Origin: Candidatus Nomurabacteria bacterium
Lineage (GTDB): Bacteria; Patescibacteriota; Minisyncoccia; Phycocordibacterales; JAACPR01
NCBI GenBank assembly: GCA_020632215.1
Contig: JACKFZ010000006.1
Location: 12,574-76,573 of the forward strand
Length of the DNA: 64,000 nucleotides
Reading direction: 5' to 3'
Numbering within the stretch: the first letter of the stretch is position 1; each line of letters begins with the position of its first letter. A program made the position numbers and the translations under genes. The notes below the pieces were generated by a model. It did not search any database, was not told the DNA's origin, and saw only the letters and a list, made by a program, of their open reading frames with translations. Below, one piece after another: positions 48,695-60,634 of this stretch.

Positions 48695-48804
48695 GGTAAA
48701 AGCGATTCTATATTATTTTCACTAAATTATCTAGTCAGAAAATTTGCGGGCTACCCCGAGCCGGAACCGTATATGCCGTGTTATATGATGTTGTGCTGTT
48801 TTTT

Positions 48805-49494
48805 TCAATCAATAAACCTGAATGTTTTAATTATCCCCAAGTGAGAGTCATCATAATCTTGGAAACTAATTATATAAGATTTATTGGCTCGAGAAATAAA
48901 TATAAAACTTTGGTCAAGTCCTATTGCGGTTGTCATCACTAGTTTATTGCTACTAATACCATTGAGAGTATAGCTTTCTTGGCTAACTATCGAGCCACCA
49001 TAATAAGAAGGATTGTCTTTATACTCTTCGAGAAATTGCTCCAAAGTTTTATCTTCAACAGAAATCACTACTGATCCACCTCCTTCTGGCATTTGTCGCC
49101 ACCCAGGATATGAAATATAAACTTCGCCTTCCTTGTATCCCGTAACTTCCCAGTCGCAAGGATAGTCAACACTATAGCCGAACTCCTCATCGCTGTAAGT
49201 TTTCCAATTACCAGGCGTTACGGATACAGGTGAAGTTTGCTTTTTATCCTCTTCTTCCCGAGTGGCAACAGATTGCTCTTGTTTCATTGCATCCTGTAAT
49301 TCTTTAATTTGATTTTGTAAAGTAGTGATTTCTGTCTGTAACGATTGCTCAGTTTTATTTAGTGAGGTTTTTTGCCAAGCATAAACTGCGCCACCAACAA
49401 CAAGTGCTGTGATTAGTATAAAAGGAACAATCGTTATAATAGTTTTCGAACCAACAACAGGCTCGTTCGGTTGTGGAAGATTTTCGTTGTCCAT
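48805..49494 (-). CDS. hypothetical membrane-anchored protein
   Basis: Transmembrane segment followed by a coiled coil. Confidence 0.4.
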   Translation of the reverse strand: MDNENLPQPNEPVVGSKTIITIVPFILITALVVGGAVYAWQKTSLNKTEQSLQTEITTLQNQIKELQDAMKQEQSVATREEEDKKQTSPVSVTPGNWKTYSDEEFGYSVDYPCDWEVTGYKEGEVYISYPGWRQMPEGGGSVVISVEDKTLEQFLEEYKDNPSYYGGSIVSQESYTLNGISSNKLVMTTAIGLDQSFIFISRANKSYIISFQDYDDSHLGIIKTFRFID

Positions 49495-49651
49495 ATTATT
49501 TTAATTAATTGATTAGATTATAAGTGAAAGAAAAATTCAGCACAACATCATATAAAACAAGTATAAATACAGGTAATCAACCCAAGGTTAAAGAATATCA
49601 AAAGCCCATTATAAAATTGTGATTAGATCACTCCGATACTTTGTTTTTACT

Positions 49652-49845
49652 GCGGTGTTTTTTGAACGAAGTTCGAACATTTTTTGAGCAAAACCTTGAA
49701 AACTAATTTGGACTCGGCGGGGCAAACTATTTTTCTGGGGAAATGGAATTGCCCCGCCTCGGCTTTCTTCCCGCCCGCAGGAGGGGTCTGGGGAGGAATG
49801 CGGGCGGGATTTTGAACCTTTCCTTTTTCGCTTCCGAATTTCGTG
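49652..49845 (-). repeat. copy 1 (inverted) of the ~194-bp GC-rich structured repeat A
   Basis: Reverse complement is identical to 58467..58659 along the portion compared by eye (the ~130-bp core). Contains two long GC hairpins (tcccgcccgca...tgcgggcggga and gaggcggggcaa...ttgccccgcc). The track ORF 49647..49868 is most likely not coding. Confidence 0.8.
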
Positions 49846-49868
49846 CCAGTTGAAAACTGGCGCGCCAC

Positions 49869-50459
49869 CTAATAATACTTCAATTTTGAATAATGCAATT
49901 TGTCGTGTGCTTCAAACAATATCTTGATCGCTTTTTTTGCATTTTTTTCTATTTCATTTTGTAAAACACTTGATTCAGTCCACATAAACGCATTTTTTAT
50001 TGAATCTTTAAATTGCGGTCTCGTTCCTTTTTTGTCTGTTGTGTTTTCTTTGCTTATCCCGTGAACAAATTCATTCCTTAAATCAAAAAGCGTCACTAAT
50101 TTTTCAAATAAATCTTGATCAATAATTTTCTTGTTTTTTGCGGCTTCTAAAATTTTCCATCCAGTTTTTGTTTTCGCCGTTTCTTCATCAACTGGATTTT
50201 GATATGGCAAATCAAGCAATTTTGCAAGTTGTCGCTCTATTGTTACGGCGCACATTATAATACTTGCCACAAAATCGCCCACCAAAAAGGCGTGGCGCGC
50301 TTCTTCAAAGCAGGAATGAACATCGGGAGAAGAAAGATAGTCTTCATTTTCTGGGTTGTAATTGTCCAAAAGAAAACGCAAGCGCTCTTTTACCTCTTTT
50401 TCGTTACTCCGGATATAATCTTTCCAATACTGATCAATTTGTGTTTGGGTGTAGTGCAT
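49869..50459 (-). CDS. HEPN-motif protein (putative RNase) co-operonic with type I R-M
   Basis: R-x4-H signature RNEFVHG at residues ~129-135 of 196. Start codon lies 3 nt after the hsdR stop. No other domain recognised. Confidence 0.45.
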   Translation of the reverse strand: MHYTQTQIDQYWKDYIRSNEKEVKERLRFLLDNYNPENEDYLSSPDVHSCFEEARHAFLVGDFVASIIMCAVTIERQLAKLLDLPYQNPVDEETAKTKTGWKILEAAKNKKIIDQDLFEKLVTLFDLRNEFVHGISKENTTDKKGTRPQFKDSIKNAFMWTESSVLQNEIEKNAKKAIKILFEAHDKLHYSKLKYY

Positions 50460-50461
50460 AA

Positions 50462-53400
50462 TTAGATATCGGTGTATTTTTTAAAATTTTCCGCTTGCTC
50501 AAATATTTCTTTAAACACCTCATCTTTTGGCACAGGAGGATAGCCATTTTTATCAAGCGTAAGAATTAAATCAACTTTCAATTCGGCTTTGATATTATCT
50601 CTAGCTGACCAATCTGTGTATCTGGCTTTATCGTCGACAATTTTTTTAATCTCTTGCGACAATATAATCAATTTATCTTCGGGATATTCAAATTTATATT
50701 TTTCAGCAACTGCCTTCAAAATATCGTAAAAGGCTTTTTCTTCAAAATCTATCCCTAACCCTTCAAAAGATTTTCTTTCTTCTTGTAGTTGCTTGAATAG
50801 ATCAGCAAATTTATCTGCCACATCATCCAAAACATGACTTTGAAATACGTCAAAATCTTTTCGTTCGTTATAAAGTTCAATAAGTTTTTTTAGTTTCTTT
50901 GAAAAATCAACACCTTTAATTCGGTTTGTCTTCTTAAACTCATTAATAGCTTTTGCTAAAAGTTTTTGTAATAGTTTGATTTTCGTGTTTGGCAATTTAA
51001 TTTTTTCAATTTTTGCCAAATATTCATCACTAAAAATATCTGCGTTATTTTCCGGTTTGTTTTTATCAAGTTTAAATATTTCTTCTACTCCTTCACTAAT
51101 CAATGCTTCTTGTATCATCTGACGCACTTTTTCATTCATTTGTGCGGTATCCGGCGCATCTCCCTTGGTTAGTTTGTGAATAATTGATTTAATGGCAAAA
51201 TAAAAATGAATATAGTCTCGTTCAATCTGCGAAATTTTCTCACTTGCACAACAAAGATCATAAGCAGACCGCAACTTCTTCGTTATAGACATGAAGCGAT
51301 TCTCTAAATCAGCCGTAACTTGAACAAATTCAGCTGACCGATTCAAGCAATTCAATTTTTCCAAAGGAGAACCCTCAAAAAAAGGCTTGGTATCAAATCC
51401 ATGAAATAATTTTGAAAGCAAGTCGAGTTGATCTTTCACAATCCCCACCGCTTTATCTGCATCTGCAAAATCATCGCCATGCACCTTACTATATTTTGCA
51501 AGAGCAATATTCATGTTGCTTTTTATTCCAATATAATCAACTACCAAGCCAACTTCTTTACCTTCATAAACACGATTGACGCGAGAAATTGTTTGAATTA
51601 GTGAATGTTGTTGAACAGGTTTGTCAATATAAATCGCCTCCAAAAAAGGCACATCAAAACCAGTAAGCCACATATCAACGACAATAGCGATTTTGAAATT
51701 TGATTTTGCATTTTTGAACTGGCGATCAAGCTCTTTTCTATCTTCTTTTGTCCCTAGCATGTCATACAGCGCTTTTTCATCATCCTTATTGCGAGTCATC
51801 ACCATTTTAATCTTCTCAATTGGCTTGATTTCTCGCTTTTCCTCTGTAGTGAGTTTTGCGCCTTCCTCGCATGCTTTAATTTCCCCCCATTCTGGTCTAA
51901 GTGAAATCACTTCTTTATAAAAATCGTAAGCAATCGGTCGGCTAGAGCAGACGAACATAACTTTACCTTTGACGCTTGCTCCTTCCTCAATTCGCTTTTC
52001 ATAATGTTCAACAAAATCTGTCGCTAAAAGTTTCAATCTCTTTGGATCACCCAAAATAACTTCCATCTGCGCTACAGCTTTTTTGCTTTCTTCTATTTGA
52101 TATTCATTTGCTCCTTCTTCTGCGCATTTGGCATAGTACTCTTCAATTTCCTTCAATTTAGCCTCATTTAATAGAACCTTCGCTGCTCGTCCTTCATAAA
52201 CAATTCTCACGGTAATTTCATCTTCTACCGATTCTTTCATTGTGTAGGCGTCGGCAACTTCACCAAAAACAGACAATGTGCCGTCAATCGGCGTACCGGT
52301 TACGCCAACATAAGTCGCATTTGGCAAAGAATCATGGAGGTATTTTGCAAACCCATATTTAACTTCCACACCCTTATCGGTAACCTTTAATTTTTGATCA
52401 AGATTTATCTGTGTTCGGTGTGCCTCATCGGAAATACAAATAACATTTGGCCTATCAGTCAAAAGCTCCGTATCTTCAGTAAATTTTTGAATCGTTGTAA
52501 GGTATACACCACCACCTTTGATACCTTGTAAGTGTTTTCGCAAATCAGCACGACTTTCAACGCTCAAAATCTTTTCTTCATTGATAAAGTTTTTGGCATT
52601 GGTAAATTGCTCAGACAATTGATCGTCCAAATCGGTTCTATCGGTAATGAGTACAATTGTCGGGCTAGATAATTCAACGCTCTTCATCAAGAGGCGTGAT
52701 AAATACAACATCGCAAAACTTTTACCCGATCCAGTCGCTCCAAAATATGTTCCACCTTTTCCGCTTCCGGTTGGCTTCATGTTCACCTTTATGCTTTCAT
52801 AGAGCTTTCGAGCGGCGTAATATTGCGGATAACGACAAACGATTTTTGCTTCGCTTTTTGAAGTGTCGGGGAAGTAGATAAAATTATGAATAACATCAAG
52901 TAGCCTGTTTTTGTCAAACAATCCTTTAATCAAGGTATAGAGTGAATCAATACCCTCACTTGGTTCATCAGTATTATTTACTTTTCTCCACGCGTAGAAA
53001 AAATCATAAGGTGAGAACAAAGACCCCATTTTGTTATTCACGCCATCGCTTATGACGCAAAAAGCGTTGTATTTCAGAAGTTCAGGAATATCTCGGCGAT
53101 AACGAACGGTCAATTGAGTATAGGCGTCTTTAATCGTGCAATTTTCTTTGACGGCACTTTTGAATTCAAAAACCACCAAAGGCAAGCCGTTTATATACAC
53201 GATTCCATCAGGAATTCTTTTTTCAGTTCCTTGAATTTCTAATTGATTAACAATTTTGAATATGTTATTCGAAGCAGTTTCAAAATCCAAGAGTTCAATA
53301 TAAATATCTTTTTGACTGCGATCTTCTCTTTTGAGAGTAAAGCCGTCAGCAATCAAACGAATAATATCCCTGTTGCTTTCATACAGCGCCGAGCTTGGAT

Positions 53401-53608
53401 AGAGATCGAGTTTTCGCAAAATTGAATCAATTTCATTTTGCGTTATACCAACACCCGCATATCTATTTTGAAGAAACGCACGCAAATCGTCACGCAGCAA
53501 AACATCACTCATTTCTTTGTGAATGGTTTCTCCGTGATGGTGCGGGATATCCACTTCTCCAAAAAGTTCTATAACCGCTTGTTCTAATGTTTCTTCAGTA
53601 AATTTCAT
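50462..53608 (-). CDS. hsdR: type I restriction enzyme R subunit
   Basis: Walker A GATGSGKS, DEAH box ISDEAHR, helicase motifs, length 1048 aa. Confidence 0.85.
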   Translation of the reverse strand: MKFTEETLEQAVIELFGEVDIPHHHGETIHKEMSDVLLRDDLRAFLQNRYAGVGITQNEIDSILRKLDLYPSSALYESNRDIIRLIADGFTLKREDRSQKDIYIELLDFETASNNIFKIVNQLEIQGTEKRIPDGIVYINGLPLVVFEFKSAVKENCTIKDAYTQLTVRYRRDIPELLKYNAFCVISDGVNNKMGSLFSPYDFFYAWRKVNNTDEPSEGIDSLYTLIKGLFDKNRLLDVIHNFIYFPDTSKSEAKIVCRYPQYYAARKLYESIKVNMKPTGSGKGGTYFGATGSGKSFAMLYLSRLLMKSVELSSPTIVLITDRTDLDDQLSEQFTNAKNFINEEKILSVESRADLRKHLQGIKGGGVYLTTIQKFTEDTELLTDRPNVICISDEAHRTQINLDQKLKVTDKGVEVKYGFAKYLHDSLPNATYVGVTGTPIDGTLSVFGEVADAYTMKESVEDEITVRIVYEGRAAKVLLNEAKLKEIEEYYAKCAEEGANEYQIEESKKAVAQMEVILGDPKRLKLLATDFVEHYEKRIEEGASVKGKVMFVCSSRPIAYDFYKEVISLRPEWGEIKACEEGAKLTTEEKREIKPIEKIKMVMTRNKDDEKALYDMLGTKEDRKELDRQFKNAKSNFKIAIVVDMWLTGFDVPFLEAIYIDKPVQQHSLIQTISRVNRVYEGKEVGLVVDYIGIKSNMNIALAKYSKVHGDDFADADKAVGIVKDQLDLLSKLFHGFDTKPFFEGSPLEKLNCLNRSAEFVQVTADLENRFMSITKKLRSAYDLCCASEKISQIERDYIHFYFAIKSIIHKLTKGDAPDTAQMNEKVRQMIQEALISEGVEEIFKLDKNKPENNADIFSDEYLAKIEKIKLPNTKIKLLQKLLAKAINEFKKTNRIKGVDFSKKLKKLIELYNERKDFDVFQSHVLDDVADKFADLFKQLQEERKSFEGLGIDFEEKAFYDILKAVAEKYKFEYPEDKLIILSQEIKKIVDDKARYTDWSARDNIKAELKVDLILTLDKNGYPPVPKDEVFKEIFEQAENFKKYTDI

Positions 53609-53610
53609 AA

Positions 53611-54741
53611 TTATTTAGTCGTTAAAGTATCAACCACTCCTTTCATCAAAACCGGACACAAAGGTGTAATCATATTTTTTAAATCTTCATTGAGTTTTTT
53701 TCTTGATTCCAAAACATAATGAATGGCAACAATTGATTTTTGCACTTCAATATCGGGTATTGGCAATCTTACTTCGCACATATCCTCCCAGTTAAATGTT
53801 TCTCTAGCACTACCCCAAGAATGAAAACGCGCGTATCTATCAAAATCAGAACGAGTGAACCAAAGATAAAGAAATTCAGGCAATAATTCTTCTTTTTTTG
53901 TAATCTCAAAAACGGGATAAATTTTTGAAACGATAAAATCTTCTTCTGTATTTAATGAAATTGGAATTCTTTCTCCCATTCTCGCCGTATTAGGGTTGAA
54001 TACAAATTGACCAACTTTCAAAAGTTTATAGCCAGAAAGTTCTACATCAGTCATGTTAGCTTTTGGCTTTATCAAAATTTTATGGATTGATACACCTCTT
54101 ACTTTACTAAGGGGCAAACCATAATTTTCGTATTCAGATTGCTGAATATAATCACCCAACCTCTTCAAGTCTTTTTTCTTTGCCAAATCTTCAATAAAAG
54201 TATCACAAATCAATTGCAAATCATCCAGACTGCTCTCATAACATTTCTGATTGCGAAGTAGTTCGTTATAAACCGCCACAACATTTTTTTGAACCCCGAT
54301 ATCATCTGGAATTGGTATCTCAATTTCACAAAATCGCTCCCATTCCAAACCACCCCTAACACTGCTATCACTAACATACCAAGAATATCTATCAAATTCC
54401 GGTTTTTGGAAAATCATCATTAGATATTCGGGAAGTAGCTTATTCGAATCTAAAACTTCAAAAGTAATATATGCAGGAGAAACAAGCGCAGGTTTATCCT
54501 CTGAATATAAAGATATCGGCAATCTTTCATCTCTGCCAACGTGCATAATGTTGCAAGCAAATCTATCTTTTCTAACTATTTTGTATTTTGATAAATCAAG
54601 ATCGGTTTGATTTGCCACCGACGGCATATAATTCTTGGTGATATTGATACCCAAAAGATTGCTTATCTCTAAGTTCTTGTTTCGCTCGTCTACGAGTTGA
54701 ATATAATCGCCAAGTTTTTTATAATTCAATTTCATAGCCAA
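53611..54741 (-). CDS. hsdS: type I restriction-modification specificity subunit
   Basis: Two target-recognition half-domains of similar length, separated by a conserved helical spacer. Sits between hsdM and hsdR. Confidence 0.8.
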   Translation of the reverse strand: MAMKLNYKKLGDYIQLVDERNKNLEISNLLGINITKNYMPSVANQTDLDLSKYKIVRKDRFACNIMHVGRDERLPISLYSEDKPALVSPAYITFEVLDSNKLLPEYLMMIFQKPEFDRYSWYVSDSSVRGGLEWERFCEIEIPIPDDIGVQKNVVAVYNELLRNQKCYESSLDDLQLICDTFIEDLAKKKDLKRLGDYIQQSEYENYGLPLSKVRGVSIHKILIKPKANMTDVELSGYKLLKVGQFVFNPNTARMGERIPISLNTEEDFIVSKIYPVFEITKKEELLPEFLYLWFTRSDFDRYARFHSWGSARETFNWEDMCEVRLPIPDIEVQKSIVAIHYVLESRKKLNEDLKNMITPLCPVLMKGVVDTLTTK

Positions 54742-56299
54742 GATGTTTAAATGCCTCCATTAGTTTTTCTTGCGAATCCTTTTCCTCTGCAAGAATATTG
54801 GTGAATTGTTTTTGAATCCGCTTCATTTCTTTGTCGTAGTTAATTTTGCTATCACGATCAACAAATTCAATGTATTTGCTCGGAATGAGCGACCAATTAT
54901 TTTTCTCAATTTCTTCGATGTTTGCGCTATAGCAAAACTCCGGAATATTTTTGTAGCTTTTTTCAAAACCCTCTCTCTGCCAGTTGTGATATGTAGAGAC
55001 TACCTCTTGGATATCGGCATCAGTGAGCTGAATATACTTTTTTTCGTATTCTTCACCTTTTCGGCGTAAATCCATAAACAATATCTCATCTTGTCTGTTG
55101 CGGTATTTCACCATTGCACCATTATGTTCAATGCTTCTAGCTTGCTTGTTTTTATTAAGAATCCAGAGCGTAACACTAATATCCGTGCTATAGAACATAT
55201 CTCGTGGCAAAACGATAATTGCTTCTACAAGGTGATTTTTGATAAACTGTTTTCTTATTGCAACCGTGTCAGGATCTCCAAGTGCGCCATTGGCAAGCAA
55301 AAATCCGGCTACTCCATTTGAGGAAAGCTTGGATGCCATATGTAAAATCCAGCCATAATTTGCATTACTAACCGGAGGCACATCATATCCCGCCCATCGC
55401 GGATCAGTGGTGAGTTCATTTGCACCTCGCCAATCCTTTTGATTGAATGGCGGATTTGCCATTATAAAATCTGCTTTGAGATCTTTGTGTTGATCTTTGC
55501 CAAAAGTATCAGCGGCGGTTTCTCCCAAATTTGAAGAGATGCCACGAATAGCCAAGTTCATTTTTGCCAGTTTGTATGTAGTCGGAATACTTTCTTGTCC
55601 GTAAATCGCAACTTCTTTGGTGTTTCCGTGATGCGCTTCAATAAATTTTATTGATTGCACAAACATACCGCCGGAACCACAGCAAGGATCATAGATTTTA
55701 CCTTTGTATGGCTCAATAAGTTCAGCAATCAGATTGACTATATTTTTGGGAGTATAAAATTCACCTTTACCTTTTCCTTCTGCGATCGCAAACTTTCTCA
55801 AAAAATATTCGTAAATTCTGCCGATAATATCGTGGGACTTATCTTTGAGTGTATCAATTTTGTGAATTTCATCTAATAAGGCTCCGAGTTTTGTAGTATC
55901 AAGATTTAATCGTGAATAGTAGTTATCTGGCAAAGCGCCTTTGAGTGCAGGATTCTTTTTTTCTACAGTAAATAATGCCGTATCTATTTTTATTGAAATA
56001 TCACTTTGTTTGGCGTTTTTTATCAAATAACTCCATCTTGATTCTTCGGGGAGATAAAACACGTTTTTCATCGTGTAAAAATCCACCATCTCCAGATATT
56101 TTTCTTTACCCTCGGCGATAAGTTCATTTCTTCGTTCCTCAAATTTATCACTGGCAAATTTTAAAAATATCAAGCCGAGCACAACGTGCTTGTATTCAGA
56201 AGGCTCAACAGTTCCCCGAAGTTTATTGGCAGATTCCCAAAGAGATTCTTCAATACTCTTCTGCTTCTTTTCTTTTTTAGGTTTAGTAGTTCTTGTCAT
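54719..56299 (-). CDS. hsdM: type I restriction-modification N6-adenine DNA methyltransferase subunit
   Basis: N-terminal HsdM_N (LWESANKLRG), SAM motif I DPCCGSGGMF, and motif IV FIMANPPFN. Confidence 0.85.
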   Translation of the reverse strand: MTRTTKPKKEKKQKSIEESLWESANKLRGTVEPSEYKHVVLGLIFLKFASDKFEERRNELIAEGKEKYLEMVDFYTMKNVFYLPEESRWSYLIKNAKQSDISIKIDTALFTVEKKNPALKGALPDNYYSRLNLDTTKLGALLDEIHKIDTLKDKSHDIIGRIYEYFLRKFAIAEGKGKGEFYTPKNIVNLIAELIEPYKGKIYDPCCGSGGMFVQSIKFIEAHHGNTKEVAIYGQESIPTTYKLAKMNLAIRGISSNLGETAADTFGKDQHKDLKADFIMANPPFNQKDWRGANELTTDPRWAGYDVPPVSNANYGWILHMASKLSSNGVAGFLLANGALGDPDTVAIRKQFIKNHLVEAIIVLPRDMFYSTDISVTLWILNKNKQARSIEHNGAMVKYRNRQDEILFMDLRRKGEEYEKKYIQLTDADIQEVVSTYHNWQREGFEKSYKNIPEFCYSANIEEIEKNNWSLIPSKYIEFVDRDSKINYDKEMKRIQKQFTNILAEEKDSQEKLMEAFKHLGYEIEL

Positions 56300-56301
56300 A
56301 C

Positions 56302-58068
56302 TTATATTTTATTAAATGCCTTTCTTATAACTCCCGCCATGAGTTTTCTTCTTTCTTGGAGGAATGTATCATATTCAAGCTGATAAAAATTTTCTGGAAT
56401 AGCGTGCTCTGCCAGCATTTCTTTAATTTCGCTCTCGCCGAACCTTTTTTGCACCATTGCAAAATATTCGCTTGGTTTGTCGTCGCTGATTTCGATATTA
56501 TCTTCAAATTCCAAAAATGTCAGATTGGCAATCTGGTTTATTTTTGCCTTGTCTTTGTTCTTATCAAATCCATATTTTGAAATGAGATAATTTCGTGGGA
56601 ATATGTGATGTTTTTCCAAACGCTTCTTTTTAATCTTTAAAGACGGATCATAAAGATCGCCTACAAGTTTGCGAGAAAATAAAACTGGCGAGCCGAGCTT
56701 GTTGAGCGCGGCATAAAAAGCATTTGCCTCTGGGCTTCTTGCTGATGATGTTTCCATTTGCCCGACAAGCGTAATATCCCAAAAATCATTGGTTAAATTC
56801 TCACCAATTATCTTTTCAAGTCCGCTGATAAATCCGTCGTGGCTAAACTCTTTTATTCTGTTTAGATCCTTTTCAAAGGCGGTTTCTGGTGAAGAAGAAT
56901 ATCTACCTGTCAGAGAAGACATCACGAACCAGCGCCCGATAATTCTTTGCAATTCGTGATTTTGCGTATTGAAATTTTGTTTTCCAATAAGATAAAGAAT
57001 ATAGCTATACAAAACGGCATTTTTTGACGATATAAGTTCTTCATCTTTATATCCGCCACCAATAAGAATTTTCAGAAAACTTTGCCAATTCGTATTATCA
57101 AGGATAGTCGGCAAATTTAATTTCAATTTATCAAATTGATGCGTTCGCAATTCTTCTGAAAATTCTCCTGTTTCCATATCGCGTCCGCGAATAATGGAGT
57201 AGACATCTTTCATTTTTGCTCGGTGGAATGTCAGACCAACTAAAACGCGAAGCATATCGTCCGGATCGGGCTTTATCAAATAATTGAAAGACGAAAAACG
57301 AGTTTCTTTTTCTGGAATTTTTCTTGAATCAATACAAAACTGCTCAATTTCTTTCCTGCCCTCTTCCCAATAGACGGAAAGTAAAGTCAAAATGAAATCA
57401 GCTTGCGTCAAACTCACCCCTTGACTGTTTATGCGAACAAAAATATCCGAGACAATTTCTTCCTCTAAATTCGGGGCAATTTCAAGAGCCGTGAGAGGAT
57501 ATTTATTGATGTTTATAAGCGATTGAATGTTTGAGGAAATTGTCTTTTCCTCTTCCTTTGTGATTTCTCTTTTTTCTTTAAGTGCCGAAATGAAATTGCT
57601 AATGATAGCAAAATCACCCTCGCCAGACCAAAGAGCTGAAAGGTCGGGAATATATTCGGGGTCGCGATCGGTCGCCGCGTCGCCGACTTTGAAAAGTGCG
57701 TCTATTGGGCGAAAAGCAATTTTGATAGCTTTGCTTTCATAATCAGGGGTCAAAACTTCCTGATTTTTCATAACGGCAAAAAGAGCCGTCAATCTTTGCT
57801 GTCCGTCAATTATCAAAAATCTCGGAATTTTCCTTTTCTTCTCATCAAAGCCAATATTTTTATAATCACTGCGATTGGCATTTTCCCAGAAAAGCAAATA
57901 TCCGATTGGATAACCACGATATATTGAATCAAATAAATCTCTAACTTTTGAGATTTTTTTATACCAAACGAACGGGCGTTGAATGTCTGGCAAAGCAATA
58001 TCGCCAATTTCAATATCGTCCATTAGTTTTCCAATCGTATAATCTGTTGTTTTGAATACTTGTGCCAT
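56302..58068 (-). CDS. GmrSD-like type IV restriction endonuclease (DUF262 + DUF1524)
   Basis: N-terminal DUF262 with DGQQRLTAL and C-terminal His-Me finger EKHHIFPRNY...ANLTFLEFEDN. Confidence 0.7.
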   Translation of the reverse strand: MAQVFKTTDYTIGKLMDDIEIGDIALPDIQRPFVWYKKISKVRDLFDSIYRGYPIGYLLFWENANRSDYKNIGFDEKKRKIPRFLIIDGQQRLTALFAVMKNQEVLTPDYESKAIKIAFRPIDALFKVGDAATDRDPEYIPDLSALWSGEGDFAIISNFISALKEKREITKEEEKTISSNIQSLININKYPLTALEIAPNLEEEIVSDIFVRINSQGVSLTQADFILTLLSVYWEEGRKEIEQFCIDSRKIPEKETRFSSFNYLIKPDPDDMLRVLVGLTFHRAKMKDVYSIIRGRDMETGEFSEELRTHQFDKLKLNLPTILDNTNWQSFLKILIGGGYKDEELISSKNAVLYSYILYLIGKQNFNTQNHELQRIIGRWFVMSSLTGRYSSSPETAFEKDLNRIKEFSHDGFISGLEKIIGENLTNDFWDITLVGQMETSSARSPEANAFYAALNKLGSPVLFSRKLVGDLYDPSLKIKKKRLEKHHIFPRNYLISKYGFDKNKDKAKINQIANLTFLEFEDNIEISDDKPSEYFAMVQKRFGESEIKEMLAEHAIPENFYQLEYDTFLQERRKLMAGVIRKAFNKI

Positions 58069-58072
58069 ATTT

Positions 58073-58282
58073 TTATTTCATTAAATCATCAAGCGAAACG
58101 CCAAGAGCATCCGCAATTTTTTTAACTGTTTCAATGGTGGGGTTGGGAGTAGAGCCAGCTTCAATTTTGGCAATCGTATGAAAAGCCAAATCCGCCTTTT
58201 TTGAAAGCTGATCCTGCGAAATGCCGAGCTTGTTTCGGTATTTCTTTATATTGTCTGCGATTGTGGATTTTTCCTTTGACAT
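58073..58282 (-). CDS. XRE-family helix-turn-helix transcriptional regulator
   Basis: NIKKYRNKLGISQDQLSKKADLAFHTIAKIEAG. First gene of the operon, with a 4-nt gap to the GmrSD-like gene. Confidence 0.7.
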   Translation of the reverse strand: MSKEKSTIADNIKKYRNKLGISQDQLSKKADLAFHTIAKIEAGSTPNPTIETVKKIADALGVSLDDLMK

Positions 58283-58466
58283 ATTCGTATAGTTTTACTA
58301 TTATAGTTGTATAGTATTAAAAATATCACTTATCAATAGTTAGTATATGAAATTTTTAGCATTTAGTCAAAGAAAAATTTTAGGGAGTTCCTTAGTGTTG
58401 CCCGCGAATGGGTTGGGTGGGTCAAGGGCAACATCTTCTTTGGCGGCGCATTTTACTTTGCAAAAT

Positions 58467-58659
58467 ACGAAATTCGGAAGCGAAAAAGGAAAGGTTCAAA
58501 ATCCCGCCCGCATTCCTCCCCAGACCCCTCCTGCGGGCGGGAAGAAAGCCGAGGCGGGGCAATTCCATTTCCCCAGAAAAATAGTTTGCCCCGCCGAGTC
58601 CAAATTAGTTTTCAAGGTTTTGCTCAAAAAATGTTCGAACTTCGTTCAAAAAACACCGC
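58467..58659 (+). repeat. copy 2 (direct) of GC-rich structured repeat A
   Basis: Inverted repeat of 49652..49845. The track ORF 58347..58916 runs through it. Confidence 0.8.
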
Positions 58660-58789
58660 CAATTTTCACTTTTTGTGAAATCGTAAGAAACAGCCTCGGC
58701 GCAAAGCGCCTCGGCATGGTATTTTTCCGCAATTTTGAAGGCATTTTTGAAATCCAAAACCAAAGTGCGGTCGGCAATGCGGAAGTTCG
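58656..58789 (-). repeat. repeat B: inverted duplicate of the last ~134 bp of the serine recombinase gene
   Basis: Reverse complement equals 60273..60406. Ends in the hexamer ccgcca, which is the 3' end of tRNA-Ser. Confidence 0.8.
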
Positions 58790-58903
58790 CAGAGCGAAGC
58801 TCTGGCAAAATGAAATTTTGCAAACCAATCTTTTTTCTTTCGCCTTTGGCGAAAGGTTGAGCGTATTTTTCTTTGATTGCCCAAAAACTAACTATCAAAA
58901 AAT

Positions 58904-60634
58904 ATGGACAACATAAATTTACAAACCAAAAAGATTTTTCTCTATGCCCGTAAATCCACGGACGAACCCGAAAGGCAGGTTTTGAGTATTGAGGCGCAAA
59001 TGTTTGAATTGCGAGAATATGCCAAAAAAGAGGGATTGAATATCGTCCGTGAATTTGTGGAAAGCAAAACCGCCAAAGAGCCGGGCAGAGAGATTTTTAA
59101 TGAAATGGTTGCAAGCATAGAGAAAAATGAAGCCGAAGGAATTTTAGCGTGGCACCCCGATAGATTGGCGAGAAATAGCATAGACGGCGGAAGAATAATT
59201 TATCTAGTAGATACTGGTAAAATAACCACGCTAAAATTTCCCACTTTTTGGTTTGATCCGACACCGCAGGGAAAATTTATGTTATCAATCGCTTTTGGGC
59301 AATCAAAATATTATGTGGATAATCTTTCGGAAAATATAAGGAGGGGTATTCGCCAGAAATTGCGAAATGGAATATGGCCCGCTTGGGCGCCACTCGGATA
59401 TTTGAACGACAAAAATCAGAGAAAAATTGTGGTTGATAAGGAAAAAGCAAAATATATAAAGCGGGCTTTTGAAATGTATGCAACTGGCGAATACCCCCTC
59501 TCTCAAATCCGAAAGATTATCAATTCCTTGGGCTTGGTTGGCAAGAAAGGCAAAATGCTTTCCGTCTCCAATTACCAATATATGCTCAAGAACAAAATCT
59601 ATTACGGCGTGATTGAATACAATGGCGAATTGTATGACGGAAAGCACGAACCGATTATCACAAAGAAACTTTTTGATTCCGTTCAAGAAGTGATGATGAA
59701 TAAAAGCAAACCGAAAACGCCAAAATTGAAACCTTATGTGTATAGAGGATTTTTCCGTTGCGGAGAGTGCGGTTGCTTCATCACTACCGAAACCCAAAAA
59801 GGTCACAACTATTTGCGATGTACCAAGCGGAAAAATCCTTGCCAGCAAAAATATGTCCGCGAAGAAATCATCACTTCTCAAATAAAAAAAGAAATCAAAA
59901 AAGTTTCTTTGTCTTCCGCTTGGGCAAACGCTTCAATCAATTATTTTGAAAACGAAAAAATGAAAATTGCCCAAGCGGAAAGCTCTTTCGCCCAAAAAGC
60001 GAGAAATGAGCTGGTAGAAATAGAAACGAAACTTGATCGCTTGCTTGATTTACAGTTAGACGGCAATTTGTCGCAAGCGGAATATACCGCTAAAAAACAA
60101 AAGATCATTCTCGCTAAAAAAGATTTGGAAGAAAAAATCTCGTCTTTTGGGCGAAAGAGCAATAATCGGTTCGAACTTGCCATTGCCTTTCTAAAAGACG
60201 CCAACCAAGCCGAAAAATACGCTCAACAAGAAAATCCCGAAAGGATTCGGGATTTTCTCAAAAAGATTGGTTCGAACTTCCGCATTGCCGACCGCACTTT
60301 GGTTTTGGATTTCAAAAATGCCTTCAAAATTGCGGAAAAATACCATGCCGAGGCGCTTTGCGCCGAGGCTGTTTCTTACGATTTCACAAAAAGTGAAAAT
60401 TGGCGGAGAGTTAGGGATTCGAACCCTAGAAGGGCTATAAACCCTTACCTCGTTAGCAGTGAGGCGCTTTCGACCACTCAGCCAACTCTCCAAGTAGAGC
60501 AAAATGTAACATATTTTATTCTTTTTTTCTATCTCCATTTATATGCTATATTCTTTTATGGAAAAAACGCCCATGACAACAAGAGAGACCCTTCAAGGAC
60601 TCCCGTCCTTCGAATACTTGGTGGGTCTAGTTAG
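58904..60634 (+). CDS. large serine recombinase (resolvase/invertase N-domain, recombinase domain, zinc ribbon, coiled coil)
   Basis: Catalytic YARKSTDEPERQ...SIEAQ, zinc ribbon CGECGC...C, and a long coiled coil. The frame stays open through the antisense tRNA-Ser, so the true C-terminus is uncertain. Confidence 0.7.
   Translation: MDNINLQTKKIFLYARKSTDEPERQVLSIEAQMFELREYAKKEGLNIVREFVESKTAKEPGREIFNEMVASIEKNEAEGILAWHPDRLARNSIDGGRIIYLVDTGKITTLKFPTFWFDPTPQGKFMLSIAFGQSKYYVDNLSENIRRGIRQKLRNGIWPAWAPLGYLNDKNQRKIVVDKEKAKYIKRAFEMYATGEYPLSQIRKIINSLGLVGKKGKMLSVSNYQYMLKNKIYYGVIEYNGELYDGKHEPIITKKLFDSVQEVMMNKSKPKTPKLKPYVYRGFFRCGECGCFITTETQKGHNYLRCTKRKNPCQQKYVREEIITSQIKKEIKKVSLSSAWANASINYFENEKMKIAQAESSFAQKARNELVEIETKLDRLLDLQLDGNLSQAEYTAKKQKIILAKKDLEEKISSFGRKSNNRFELAIAFLKDANQAEKYAQQENPERIRDFLKKIGSNFRIADRTLVLDFKNAFKIAEKYHAEALCAEAVSYDFTKSENWRRVRDSNPRRAINPYLVSSEALSTTQPTLQVEQNVTYFILFFYLHLYAIFFYGKNAHDNKRDPSRTPVLRILGGSS
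60273..60406 (+). repeat. repeat B' (recombinase 3' coding end)
   Basis: Inverted partner of 58656..58789. Its right boundary coincides with the 3' end of tRNA-Ser. Confidence 0.8.
60401..60490 (-). tRNA. tRNA-Ser (anticodon GCU) with encoded CCA
   Basis: Reverse complement reads ggagagt...anticodon loop cTGCTAa...a long variable arm...T-arm GGTTCGAATCC...actctcc-g-cca. Confidence 0.75.

Follow-up and report, generated by a model that had tools for sequence, protein, structure and literature searches.

Large serine recombinases (LSRs) are best known from the phage integrases of Bxb1, phiC31, A118/LI and SPbeta, from the CcrAB proteins of SCCmec, from the Int protein of the V. cholerae PLE, and from Tn4451/Tn5397. 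SCCmec elements accrete in tandem at a target that is regenerated. Circles that isomerise through inverted repeats are represented by the yeast 2-micron plasmid, with its FLP recombinase, and by plastid genomes. In Prochlorococcus, 910 of 937 tycheposons use tyrosine recombinases and many carry replication genes (bioRxiv 10.1101/2020.12.28.424599). Restriction-modification (R-M) units flanked by long inverted repeats have been described with short target duplications and no linked recombinase, and units that combine R-M genes with an integrase in tRNA genes have direct repeats (Furuta, Abe and Kobayashi, 2010, PMC2853133). Bacteria of the candidate phyla radiation (CPR), or Patescibacteria, have tiny genomes with few recognised mobile elements, yet they carry dense defence systems (PMC12259885). 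The DNA considered here is a stretch of 64,000 nucleotides from a Candidatus Nomurabacteria bacterium (assembly GCA_020632215.1, contig JACKFZ010000006.1), hereafter called the window. Within it, positions 49652-60406 very probably form a 10.75-kb island that was inserted by its own LSR into the 3' end of a tRNA-Ser(gct) gene, with a repeat designated A as the element-side attachment arm.

A repeat search of the window places the two arms of A at 49652-49844 and 58467-58659, where they lie in inverted orientation, 8622 nt apart and 100% complementary. The first-pass annotation of this DNA had reported a perfect inverted repeat of about 194 bp on the basis of a core of about 130 bp; the repeat is real and is complementary over its full length, although that length is 193 nt and not 194. 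A 54-nt core of A occurs at two sites only in the window when up to three mismatches are allowed (none expected, from 100 shuffles), and the local richness in GC that had been remarked upon is evident (0.56-0.61 in A vs 0.24-0.36 in the flanks). A second perfect inverted repeat, B, brackets the recombinase gene. Its 134-nt arms at 58656-58789 and 60273-60406 are likewise 100% complementary, and the first of them overlaps A by the 4 nt CCGC, in agreement with the earlier observation that the right copy of A continues into CCGCCA and repeat B. The features of the attachment sites and of the recombinase cassette are as follows.

49652-49844, forward strand: left copy of repeat A, the putative element-side (P) arm block, forming attR with the host DNA on its left
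49652-49655: core GCGG of the left A copy
49656-49706: predicted native tail of the recombinase, CFLNEVRTFFEQNLEN, and TAA, in the left A copy
49672-49677: TTCGAA motif of the left A copy
49716-49758: hairpin 1 of the left A copy
49770-49808: hairpin 2 of the left A copy, with loop GGAGGGGTCTGGGGAGG and then a T run
58467-58659, reverse strand: right copy of repeat A, the putative P arm of an intact attP kept within the island
58656-58659: core CCGC common to A and B
58656-58789, forward strand: upstream copy of repeat B, the putative recombinase-side (P') arm, in which the final 134 nt of the integrated recombinase frame are repeated in inverted, non-coding form
58790-58903, forward strand: recombinase leader, designated Lup, with three small hairpins
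58904-60634, forward strand: LSR gene, residues 1-501 conserved
60273-60406, forward strand: coding copy of repeat B, recombinase residues 457-501, with the outer end GCGG (60403-60406) as the putative attL core
60401-60491, reverse strand: tRNA-Ser(gct) gene, the putative integration target, with the T-arm TTCGAA 11 nt from the core CCGC

In the direction of the tRNA, the window has the junctions tRNA-CCGC-B at 60406, A'-CCGC-host at 49652 and, on the other strand, A'-CCGC-B at 58656. The middle junction combines halves of the two outer ones, its left half matching one and its right half the other, with CCGC alone in common, and this combination of halves is the relation of an attP to its attR and attL. 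The left A copy together with host DNA would thus be attR, the tRNA together with B would be attL, and the right A copy together with B would be a complete attP, inverted and retained inside the integrated island. An alignment of the junctions of 20 loci gave the same three classes. In the attR class, A'..TTCGAAC-N15-CCGC is followed by unrelated host sequence; in the internal class, A'..CCGC is followed by CA and B; and in the attL class, tRNA-Ser ..GGTTCGAATCC-N7-CCGC is followed by CA and B. The bases common to the tRNA-B and A'-host junctions are CCGC, sometimes CCGCCA, both in the window and in these loci. The 3' end CCGCCA of tRNA-Ser(gct) is rebuilt by arm B, and the far B arm ends inside the tRNA gene. 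The initial suggestion that the repeats might be att-like ends of a recombined cassette was therefore essentially right, as the outer end of each copy is the recombinase crossover core.

The spacing within the arms is also that of an LSR. In large serine integrases, the DBD2 motif lies 5 bp nearer the centre in attB than in attP (PMC11722253). Here, the distance from TTCGAA to the core is 16 nt in A vs 11 nt in the tRNA arm at all main-lineage loci, which is the same 5-bp shift between half-sites, for the left arms; the host-side arm of attB is without a recognisable motif. The tRNA that abuts the 3' end of the recombinase gene is a tRNA-Ser (gct, gga, cga or tga) in 58 of 60 loci. At one locus with a remoter recombinase lineage (L053:2514-2588, 73% identity), the abutting tRNA is tRNA-Gln(ttg), which suggests target switching within the recombinase family. 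It was also observed that tRNA-Ser genes of several anticodons lie in clusters no more than a few kb from occupied sites and are often accompanied by tRNA-Arg(gcg) (L038, L015, L029, L008, L060 and L224).

These junctions also bear on a transposon-like origin, in which the A copies would be terminal inverted repeats of an R-M unit that a transposase supplied in trans would mobilise (Furuta et al., 2010, PMC2853133). The island does resemble the units of that study, both in the long inverted repeats around its R-M genes and in the combination of R-M genes with a recombinase in a tRNA gene. Unlike in those units, however, the inverted repeats of the window appear to be the att arms of the recombinase itself: they end exactly at its core and hold its coding tail. 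Moreover, no target-site duplication is seen: the left flank is host DNA, the right one is arm B, and the two are unrelated. A transposase domain is likewise absent, and this origin is extremely improbable.

The adjacent gene had been recognised as that of a serine recombinase, and its product indeed contains Resolvase (PF00239, 1.8e-20), Recombinase (PF07508, 1.2e-16) and Zn_ribbon_recom (PF13408, 8.7e-8) domains along with the N-terminal motif YARKST. Past the core, its frame crosses the tRNA-Ser gene in antisense and acquires a 75-residue read-through tail. When the frame is read from B' into A, it stops after 16 codons (CFLNEVRTFFEQNLEN, TAA), and two hairpins with T runs follow directly. 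Thousands of homologues of this recombinase exist, and the C-termini of the best 120 homologue clusters (60-96% identity) were compared. Following a conserved '..SENWR', at least 56 of the 120 clusters have a variable end that starts with 'RxRDSNPR', which corresponds to the antisense of the tRNA T-arm, and at least 20 of the 120 have the conserved tail 'CFLDEVRTFFEQNP', the same as the B'-to-A reading of the window. Given these two classes, the unintegrated recombinase gene has its native 3' end in the first 51 nt of A past the core. In the right copy of A, on the minus strand, these 51 nt stand in frame after an inverted copy of the recombinase 3' end. Two open reading frames predicted through the repeat (49647..49868 and 58347..58916) had been judged to be non-coding, and this is probably correct for the frames themselves, which have no Pfam match, but it does not hold for the opposite strand, where the first 51 nt past the core encode the recombinase tail.

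The upstream arm of the recombinase gene has a history of its own. The reverse complement of Lup retains degenerate blocks of the recombinase 3' coding region (GAAAAATACGCTCAAC; AAAAAGATTGGTT), and therefore the upstream arm is the outer part of an old inverted duplication. An insertion of 33 nt, made up of two hairpins, lies exactly at the 134-nt boundary of B. Judging from the retained blocks, the duplication appears to have taken in the last ~210-270 nt of the recombinase gene as well as attP, with Lup as its decayed inner part. A small protein in the internal copy (58605..58898, minus strand, 97 aa), which would join the recombinase C-terminal copy to the native tail, was considered and rejected as a gene. 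The frame is open in most loci; it has no Pfam match and no conserved start codon, and its non-duplicated part shows no third-position bias (20/21/23 variable columns). More probably, this stretch is what decay has left of the inner portion of the old inverted duplication at the recombinase 3' end.

With these details in place, the island can be set against the systems introduced above. It is like LSR elements in its three-domain recombinase (Resolvase, Recombinase, Zn ribbon), in the conservative recombination predicted at a very short core, and in attP/attB-type half-sites that are set apart by a 5-bp shift of the outer motif. Unlike LSR elements, the island keeps an intact inverted attP, and long perfect inverted repeats bracket both its recombinase gene and its cargo; its recombinase frame crosses attP, so that the C-terminus changes on integration; and its attB is conserved in the tRNA-side arm only. 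With tycheposons it shares a small size, tRNA targeting, a site-specific recombinase, the building of islands and an adaptive or defence cargo, whereas the cited study describes no inverted-arm cassette design and the host phylum differs. Its excised form would, like the isomerising circles, have two long inverted repeats, each with a recombinase site, and a small and a large unique segment; in contrast to these, no circle was observed, nothing points to flip-flop isomers, and the island encodes no replication function. The island is thus distinct from LSR elements, tycheposons and the units of Furuta and colleagues in three respects, namely its two inverted-arm cassettes, its retained inverted attP and its recombinase frame across attP. 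No description of a two-cassette inverted-arm architecture was found in the literature searched.

The cargo that lies between the A arms had been described as a defence operon, and this is borne out by its genes.

49845-58466, reverse strand: interior of the cargo cassette, all genes on the minus strand
49869-50459, reverse strand: orf196, a 196-aa open reading frame of unknown function
50462-53608, reverse strand: hsdR, Type I R-M
53611-54741, reverse strand: hsdS, Type I R-M
54719-56299, reverse strand: hsdM, Type I R-M
56302-58068, reverse strand: GmrSD-like nuclease
58073-58282, reverse strand: controller-type helix-turn-helix (HTH) protein
58283-58466: conserved 184-nt upstream region with candidate promoters

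A second genome, assembly GCA_020632355.1 (L087/L096, JACKFS010000004.1), contains all 8622 bp of this cargo, with the A copy next to it, at 100% identity. The sequence past A differs there, and neither flank of the window is present in the fetched locus, which points to a very recent horizontal transfer and lends indirect support to mobility of the element. The exact HTH protein occurs in 106 blocks of the collection, where it heads differing cargos: Type I R-M with or without GmrSD, MmeI-like, Type ISP-like with AAA_13, and others. A cargo related to that of the window was observed in JACCDG010109557.1 (L095/L086/L089); the two are ~98-99% identical save for ~300 nt of hsdS. The stretch that cannot be aligned (window 54343-54649) lies in the N-terminal half of hsdS, the HsdS proteins having 376 aa vs 373 aa, and the difference looks like a swap of the target-recognition domain between near-identical cassettes. 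The best promoter-like match in the region is at 58276-58304 on the forward strand (TTGACA-17-TATTAT, 11/12); it lies within the beginning of the oppositely oriented HTH gene and is directed through A' and B to the recombinase gene. In the direction of this match, A' is without a terminator-like tail. An origin from a phage or phage satellite was ruled out, as the cargo holds only R-M, GmrSD and HTH genes with no viral structural or packaging genes among them, and IMG/VR contains a single distant relative (58% identity). Just outside the island, a 34-nt inverted repeat with 85% identity (48778-48811 / 49525-49558) brackets a PsbP-like gene (48805-49494).

The design of the island is not confined to this genome. 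In a scan of one genome per GTDB species, relatives of the recombinase were found in at least 538 species representatives, and most of the best 80 relatives belong to many classes of Patescibacteria/CPR, with a protein identity of 88-96%, while those of Elusimicrobia stand at ~61%. When window segments were mapped onto the loci and each locus was scanned for inverted repeats, the layout host, A, cargo, A', B-leader-recombinase-B', tRNA' was found at ~25 genome loci, among them loci in contigs of 0.4 Mb to 0.78 Mb, in one contig of 1.06 Mb, and in Elusimicrobia relatives (~61% identity). Across loci, the cargo arms measure 155-420 nt with 97-100% identity. The recombinase arms have a length of 134 nt both in the main lineage and in several of the Elusimicrobia relatives, while other lineages have arms of 84-106 nt. 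In metagenomes, 110 stretches contain the internal junction A'-core-B-leader. The first-pass annotation had proposed to look for the repeat in related genomes and to note its surroundings: the design recurs, and what lies between the A arms is mostly R-M or defence genes. The A and B variants assort independently of one another, with the same A 40-mer found next to three types of B and vice versa.

Several of these loci depart from the simple layout. On a 1.06-Mb contig (L224), it occurs twice, as each of two neighbouring tRNA-Ser genes has its own island. Another contig (L021) carries a tandem array in the order A1', recombinase 1, cargo 2, recombinase 2, tRNA-Ser, with the CCGC core at every junction; in this accretion at a regenerated target the islands are like SCCmec. 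Decay is seen in L101 and L085, where a B-to-A deletion took out the recombinase and kept the cargo. The latter is found in a complete genome (CP129470.1, 888,748 bp), in which L085:9338-12000 consists of tRNA-Ser(cga), B(1-45) fused to A(105-193), the upstream region, HTH and GmrSD. Finally, in JBAYJO010000001.1 (L027:9669-11587), a recombinase cassette without cargo is placed between two inverted, 100% identical tRNA-Ser(gga) genes. Its B arms are unlike each other (97.7% vs 90.3% identity to the window), and it is flanked on both sides by host genes, which encode an intein-containing DnaG and PPDK. Secondary recombination of the internal attP, or fold-back repair, is a possible origin of this cassette.

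Long perfect repeats can mislead an assembler, and two contigs from JGI, Ga0210015_1005618 (L129) and Ga0209407_1006057 (L133), illustrate this. Both are perfect palindromes, with 1140/1140 and 1966/1966 identical arm positions, respectively, and both have the order recombinase cassette, cargo, same recombinase cassette inverted. In L133, the two ends are the same tRNA T-arm. These contigs are most likely assembler walks through inverted repeats. Such chimeric palindromes, together with the many contigs that break inside the arms, raise the question of whether the inverted repeat of the window could itself be an artefact produced by mis-threading the integrated and excised forms in a metagenome assembly. 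This is highly unlikely. Both repeats are secure in the window because each of the two segments, cargo and recombinase, meets the inner end of one and the same repeat at both of its ends, and thus two inverted copies must exist in any real molecule. The layout is also found with non-identical arms, in the contigs of 0.4-1.06 Mb, and, in the complete genome, in a form shortened by deletion. What an assembler can choose is limited to the orientation of segments between perfect arms, and for the window this orientation rests on agreement with unambiguous loci.

Orientation is the central issue for another explanation, namely that the locus is an invertible switch. The 8.6-kb segment had initially been put forward as a substrate for inversion, and it is conceivable that the recombinase or RecA flips the cargo between the A copies, the recombinase cassette between the B copies, or both, to give phase variation. 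Both segments are indeed flanked by perfect inverted repeats that bear the recombinase's own core, and identical recombinase proteins (P0097, P0063) are encoded on contigs with the cargo after A in either orientation. In addition, the recombinase reads away from the tRNA in two loci, L002 and L003, and a tRNA arm lies upstream of the recombinase gene in ~3 genome loci. However, A is a perfect repeat and exceeds short reads in length, and L129 and L133 are palindromic, so contigs with both orientations are unreliable as evidence of inversion. For this reason, the finding of both cargo orientations behind identical recombinases was not accepted as proof. The HTH end of the cargo adjoins the internal A copy in every locus where it can be placed, and all eight loci with imperfect B arms (L006, L011, L019, L020, L021, L025, L071 and L075) share the layout of the window; with such arms, the orientation of the recombinase segment cannot be the assembler's choice. 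The upstream arm in L002 and L003 is just ~66-71% identical, so these are not simple flips. Furthermore, a flip would leave nothing obvious changed, as the segment itself contains the candidate promoters (58370-58300), the hairpins point inward at either end, and the repeats lie outside hsdS. The inversion proposal is consequently unsupported as far as a switch is concerned: a switch at this locus is unlikely, and flipping of the cargo finds no support.

The two GC hairpins that had been predicted in the repeat are both present and fold as described. Repeat A folds better than shuffles on both strands (z = -2.3 and -3.5), and the covariation check proposed at the outset, carried out on 32 distinct A sequences, found the stems to be 98% paired, with six pairs changed on both sides vs 0.5 in shuffles. 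A 19-nt hairpin loop, AGGAGGGGTCTGGGGAGGAAT, is invariant in these 32 sequences and includes the motif GGGGTCTGGGG. The pattern G4-N(2-5)-G4, or its complement, occurs in 153 of 173 A variants vs 6.5% of background windows; wherever the sequence was inspected, it lies in the loop of a GC hairpin, on either strand relative to the recombinase, and in the window it is confined to the two A copies. Folding on both strands, compensatory substitutions and an invariant loop are what two copies of a structured non-coding RNA gene, or of a regulatory RNA element, would display, and an RNA gene in two copies had been suggested. Nevertheless, no family in Rfam 15 matches A at the gathering score, which in the window is reached by just four tRNAs; in 49400-50000, the best scores are 18-24 bits vs cut-offs of 45-80, with best E-values of 0.45-0.98. 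The element is always found at the recombinase core, with the first 51 nt past the core in frame with the recombinase gene. Other A variants have only the first ~44 nt in common and differ in their hairpins, and the loop motif is found on either strand relative to the recombinase. An RNA gene is thus a very improbable explanation for A, despite the compensatory changes in its hairpins. As parts of the attachment arm, the hairpins may end transcription of the recombinase gene and read-through from the tRNA: two GC stems, and then CTTTCTT and A/TTTTT, are located directly past the TAA of the recombinase tail.

Small hairpins were also observed. With GAA, AAA or GAAA loops, they mark every inner repeat boundary, at 58790-58840, 49845-49861 and 58450-58466 in the window and at equivalent positions in L003, L027, L101 and L109. 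Their sequence varies by locus and the hairpin is kept, as in CAGAGC-GAA-GCTCTG, GCAAAAT-GAA-ATTTTGC and GCCAGTT-GAAA-AACTGGC.

Some observations weigh against an island inserted by its own LSR, or are not accommodated by such a model in its simplest form. No empty tRNA-Ser site or excised circle was recovered, and integration and excision are deduced from the junction anatomy alone; since the junction of an excised circle would be the same as the internal attP over 323 bp, contigs cannot reveal a circle. Such a circle would hold two attP sites of identical sequence, of which the one crossed by the recombinase gene is nevertheless almost always that used in integrated copies; in the unbiased genome set the upstream arm of the recombinase is A-type in 37 loci and tRNA-type in ~3. 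The simple island model leaves both this bias and the conservation of the internal attP over deep divergence unaccounted for. The host-side arm of attB is without conservation, which is unusual among characterised LSRs, and the specificity thus seems to come from the tRNA arm. Among LSRs of solved structure, none is close to this recombinase, and matches are limited to the catalytic domain (E ~1e-5). Lastly, the A hairpins were not called by a consensus terminator scan, because their loops exceed 8 nt, and the invariant G-rich loop suggests a function beyond termination.

A mechanism can be proposed for how the parts of the island may work together. The island consists of two cassettes, each between inverted arms, with the recombinase between the B arms and the cargo between the A arms. 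The 51 nt past the core would have a dual role, encoding the native C-terminal tail and stop of the recombinase and also serving as a recombinase binding half-site, while the two GC hairpins with their T runs would terminate transcription in the reading direction of the recombinase. Recombination of attL with attR would excise the island and bring the left A copy back to the end of the recombinase gene, which would regain its tail and terminators, and the empty site would have the junction ...GAATCCCTAACTCTCCGC followed directly by AGTAAAAACAAAGTATCGG. In the integrated island, the internal A copy would stop tRNA read-through, which is antisense to the recombinase gene, ahead of the cargo promoter. 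The arms may be kept identical by gene conversion bounded by the heterologous hairpin insertions; that arm identity is maintained only outside the heterologous insertion is as expected for gene conversion. A further and more tentative possibility is that the islands represent an undescribed class of serine-recombinase elements, with two inverted-arm cassettes and a permanently retained functional attP, that act as the main shuttle of defence genes across the CPR. The independent assortment of A and B, the arrays, and the lone recombinase cassette between inverted identical tRNA-Ser genes are hints in this direction.

The islands offer a concrete vehicle for defence genes in CPR bacteria. Their arms explain contig breaks and palindromic mis-assemblies in metagenome bins of CPR bacteria, for which L129 and L133 serve as a warning. 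The loci also supply many natural attP/attB pairs from a lineage remote from the recombinases used in genome engineering, with a target that is apparently half-specific. They pose a mechanistic puzzle as well, in that an intact attP, identical in sequence to the attP used for integration, has been conserved within the island even though the recombinases have drifted apart to 61% identity. If the islands do constitute a class of their own, the retained attP and a specificity for the tRNA arm only would allow stacking at the regenerated tRNA end, exchange of cassettes from one element to another, and secondary recombination with other tRNA-Ser genes. Such reactions lie beyond those of ordinary LSR elements, and the element would then be the main shuttle of R-M and other defence genes across CPR bacteria.

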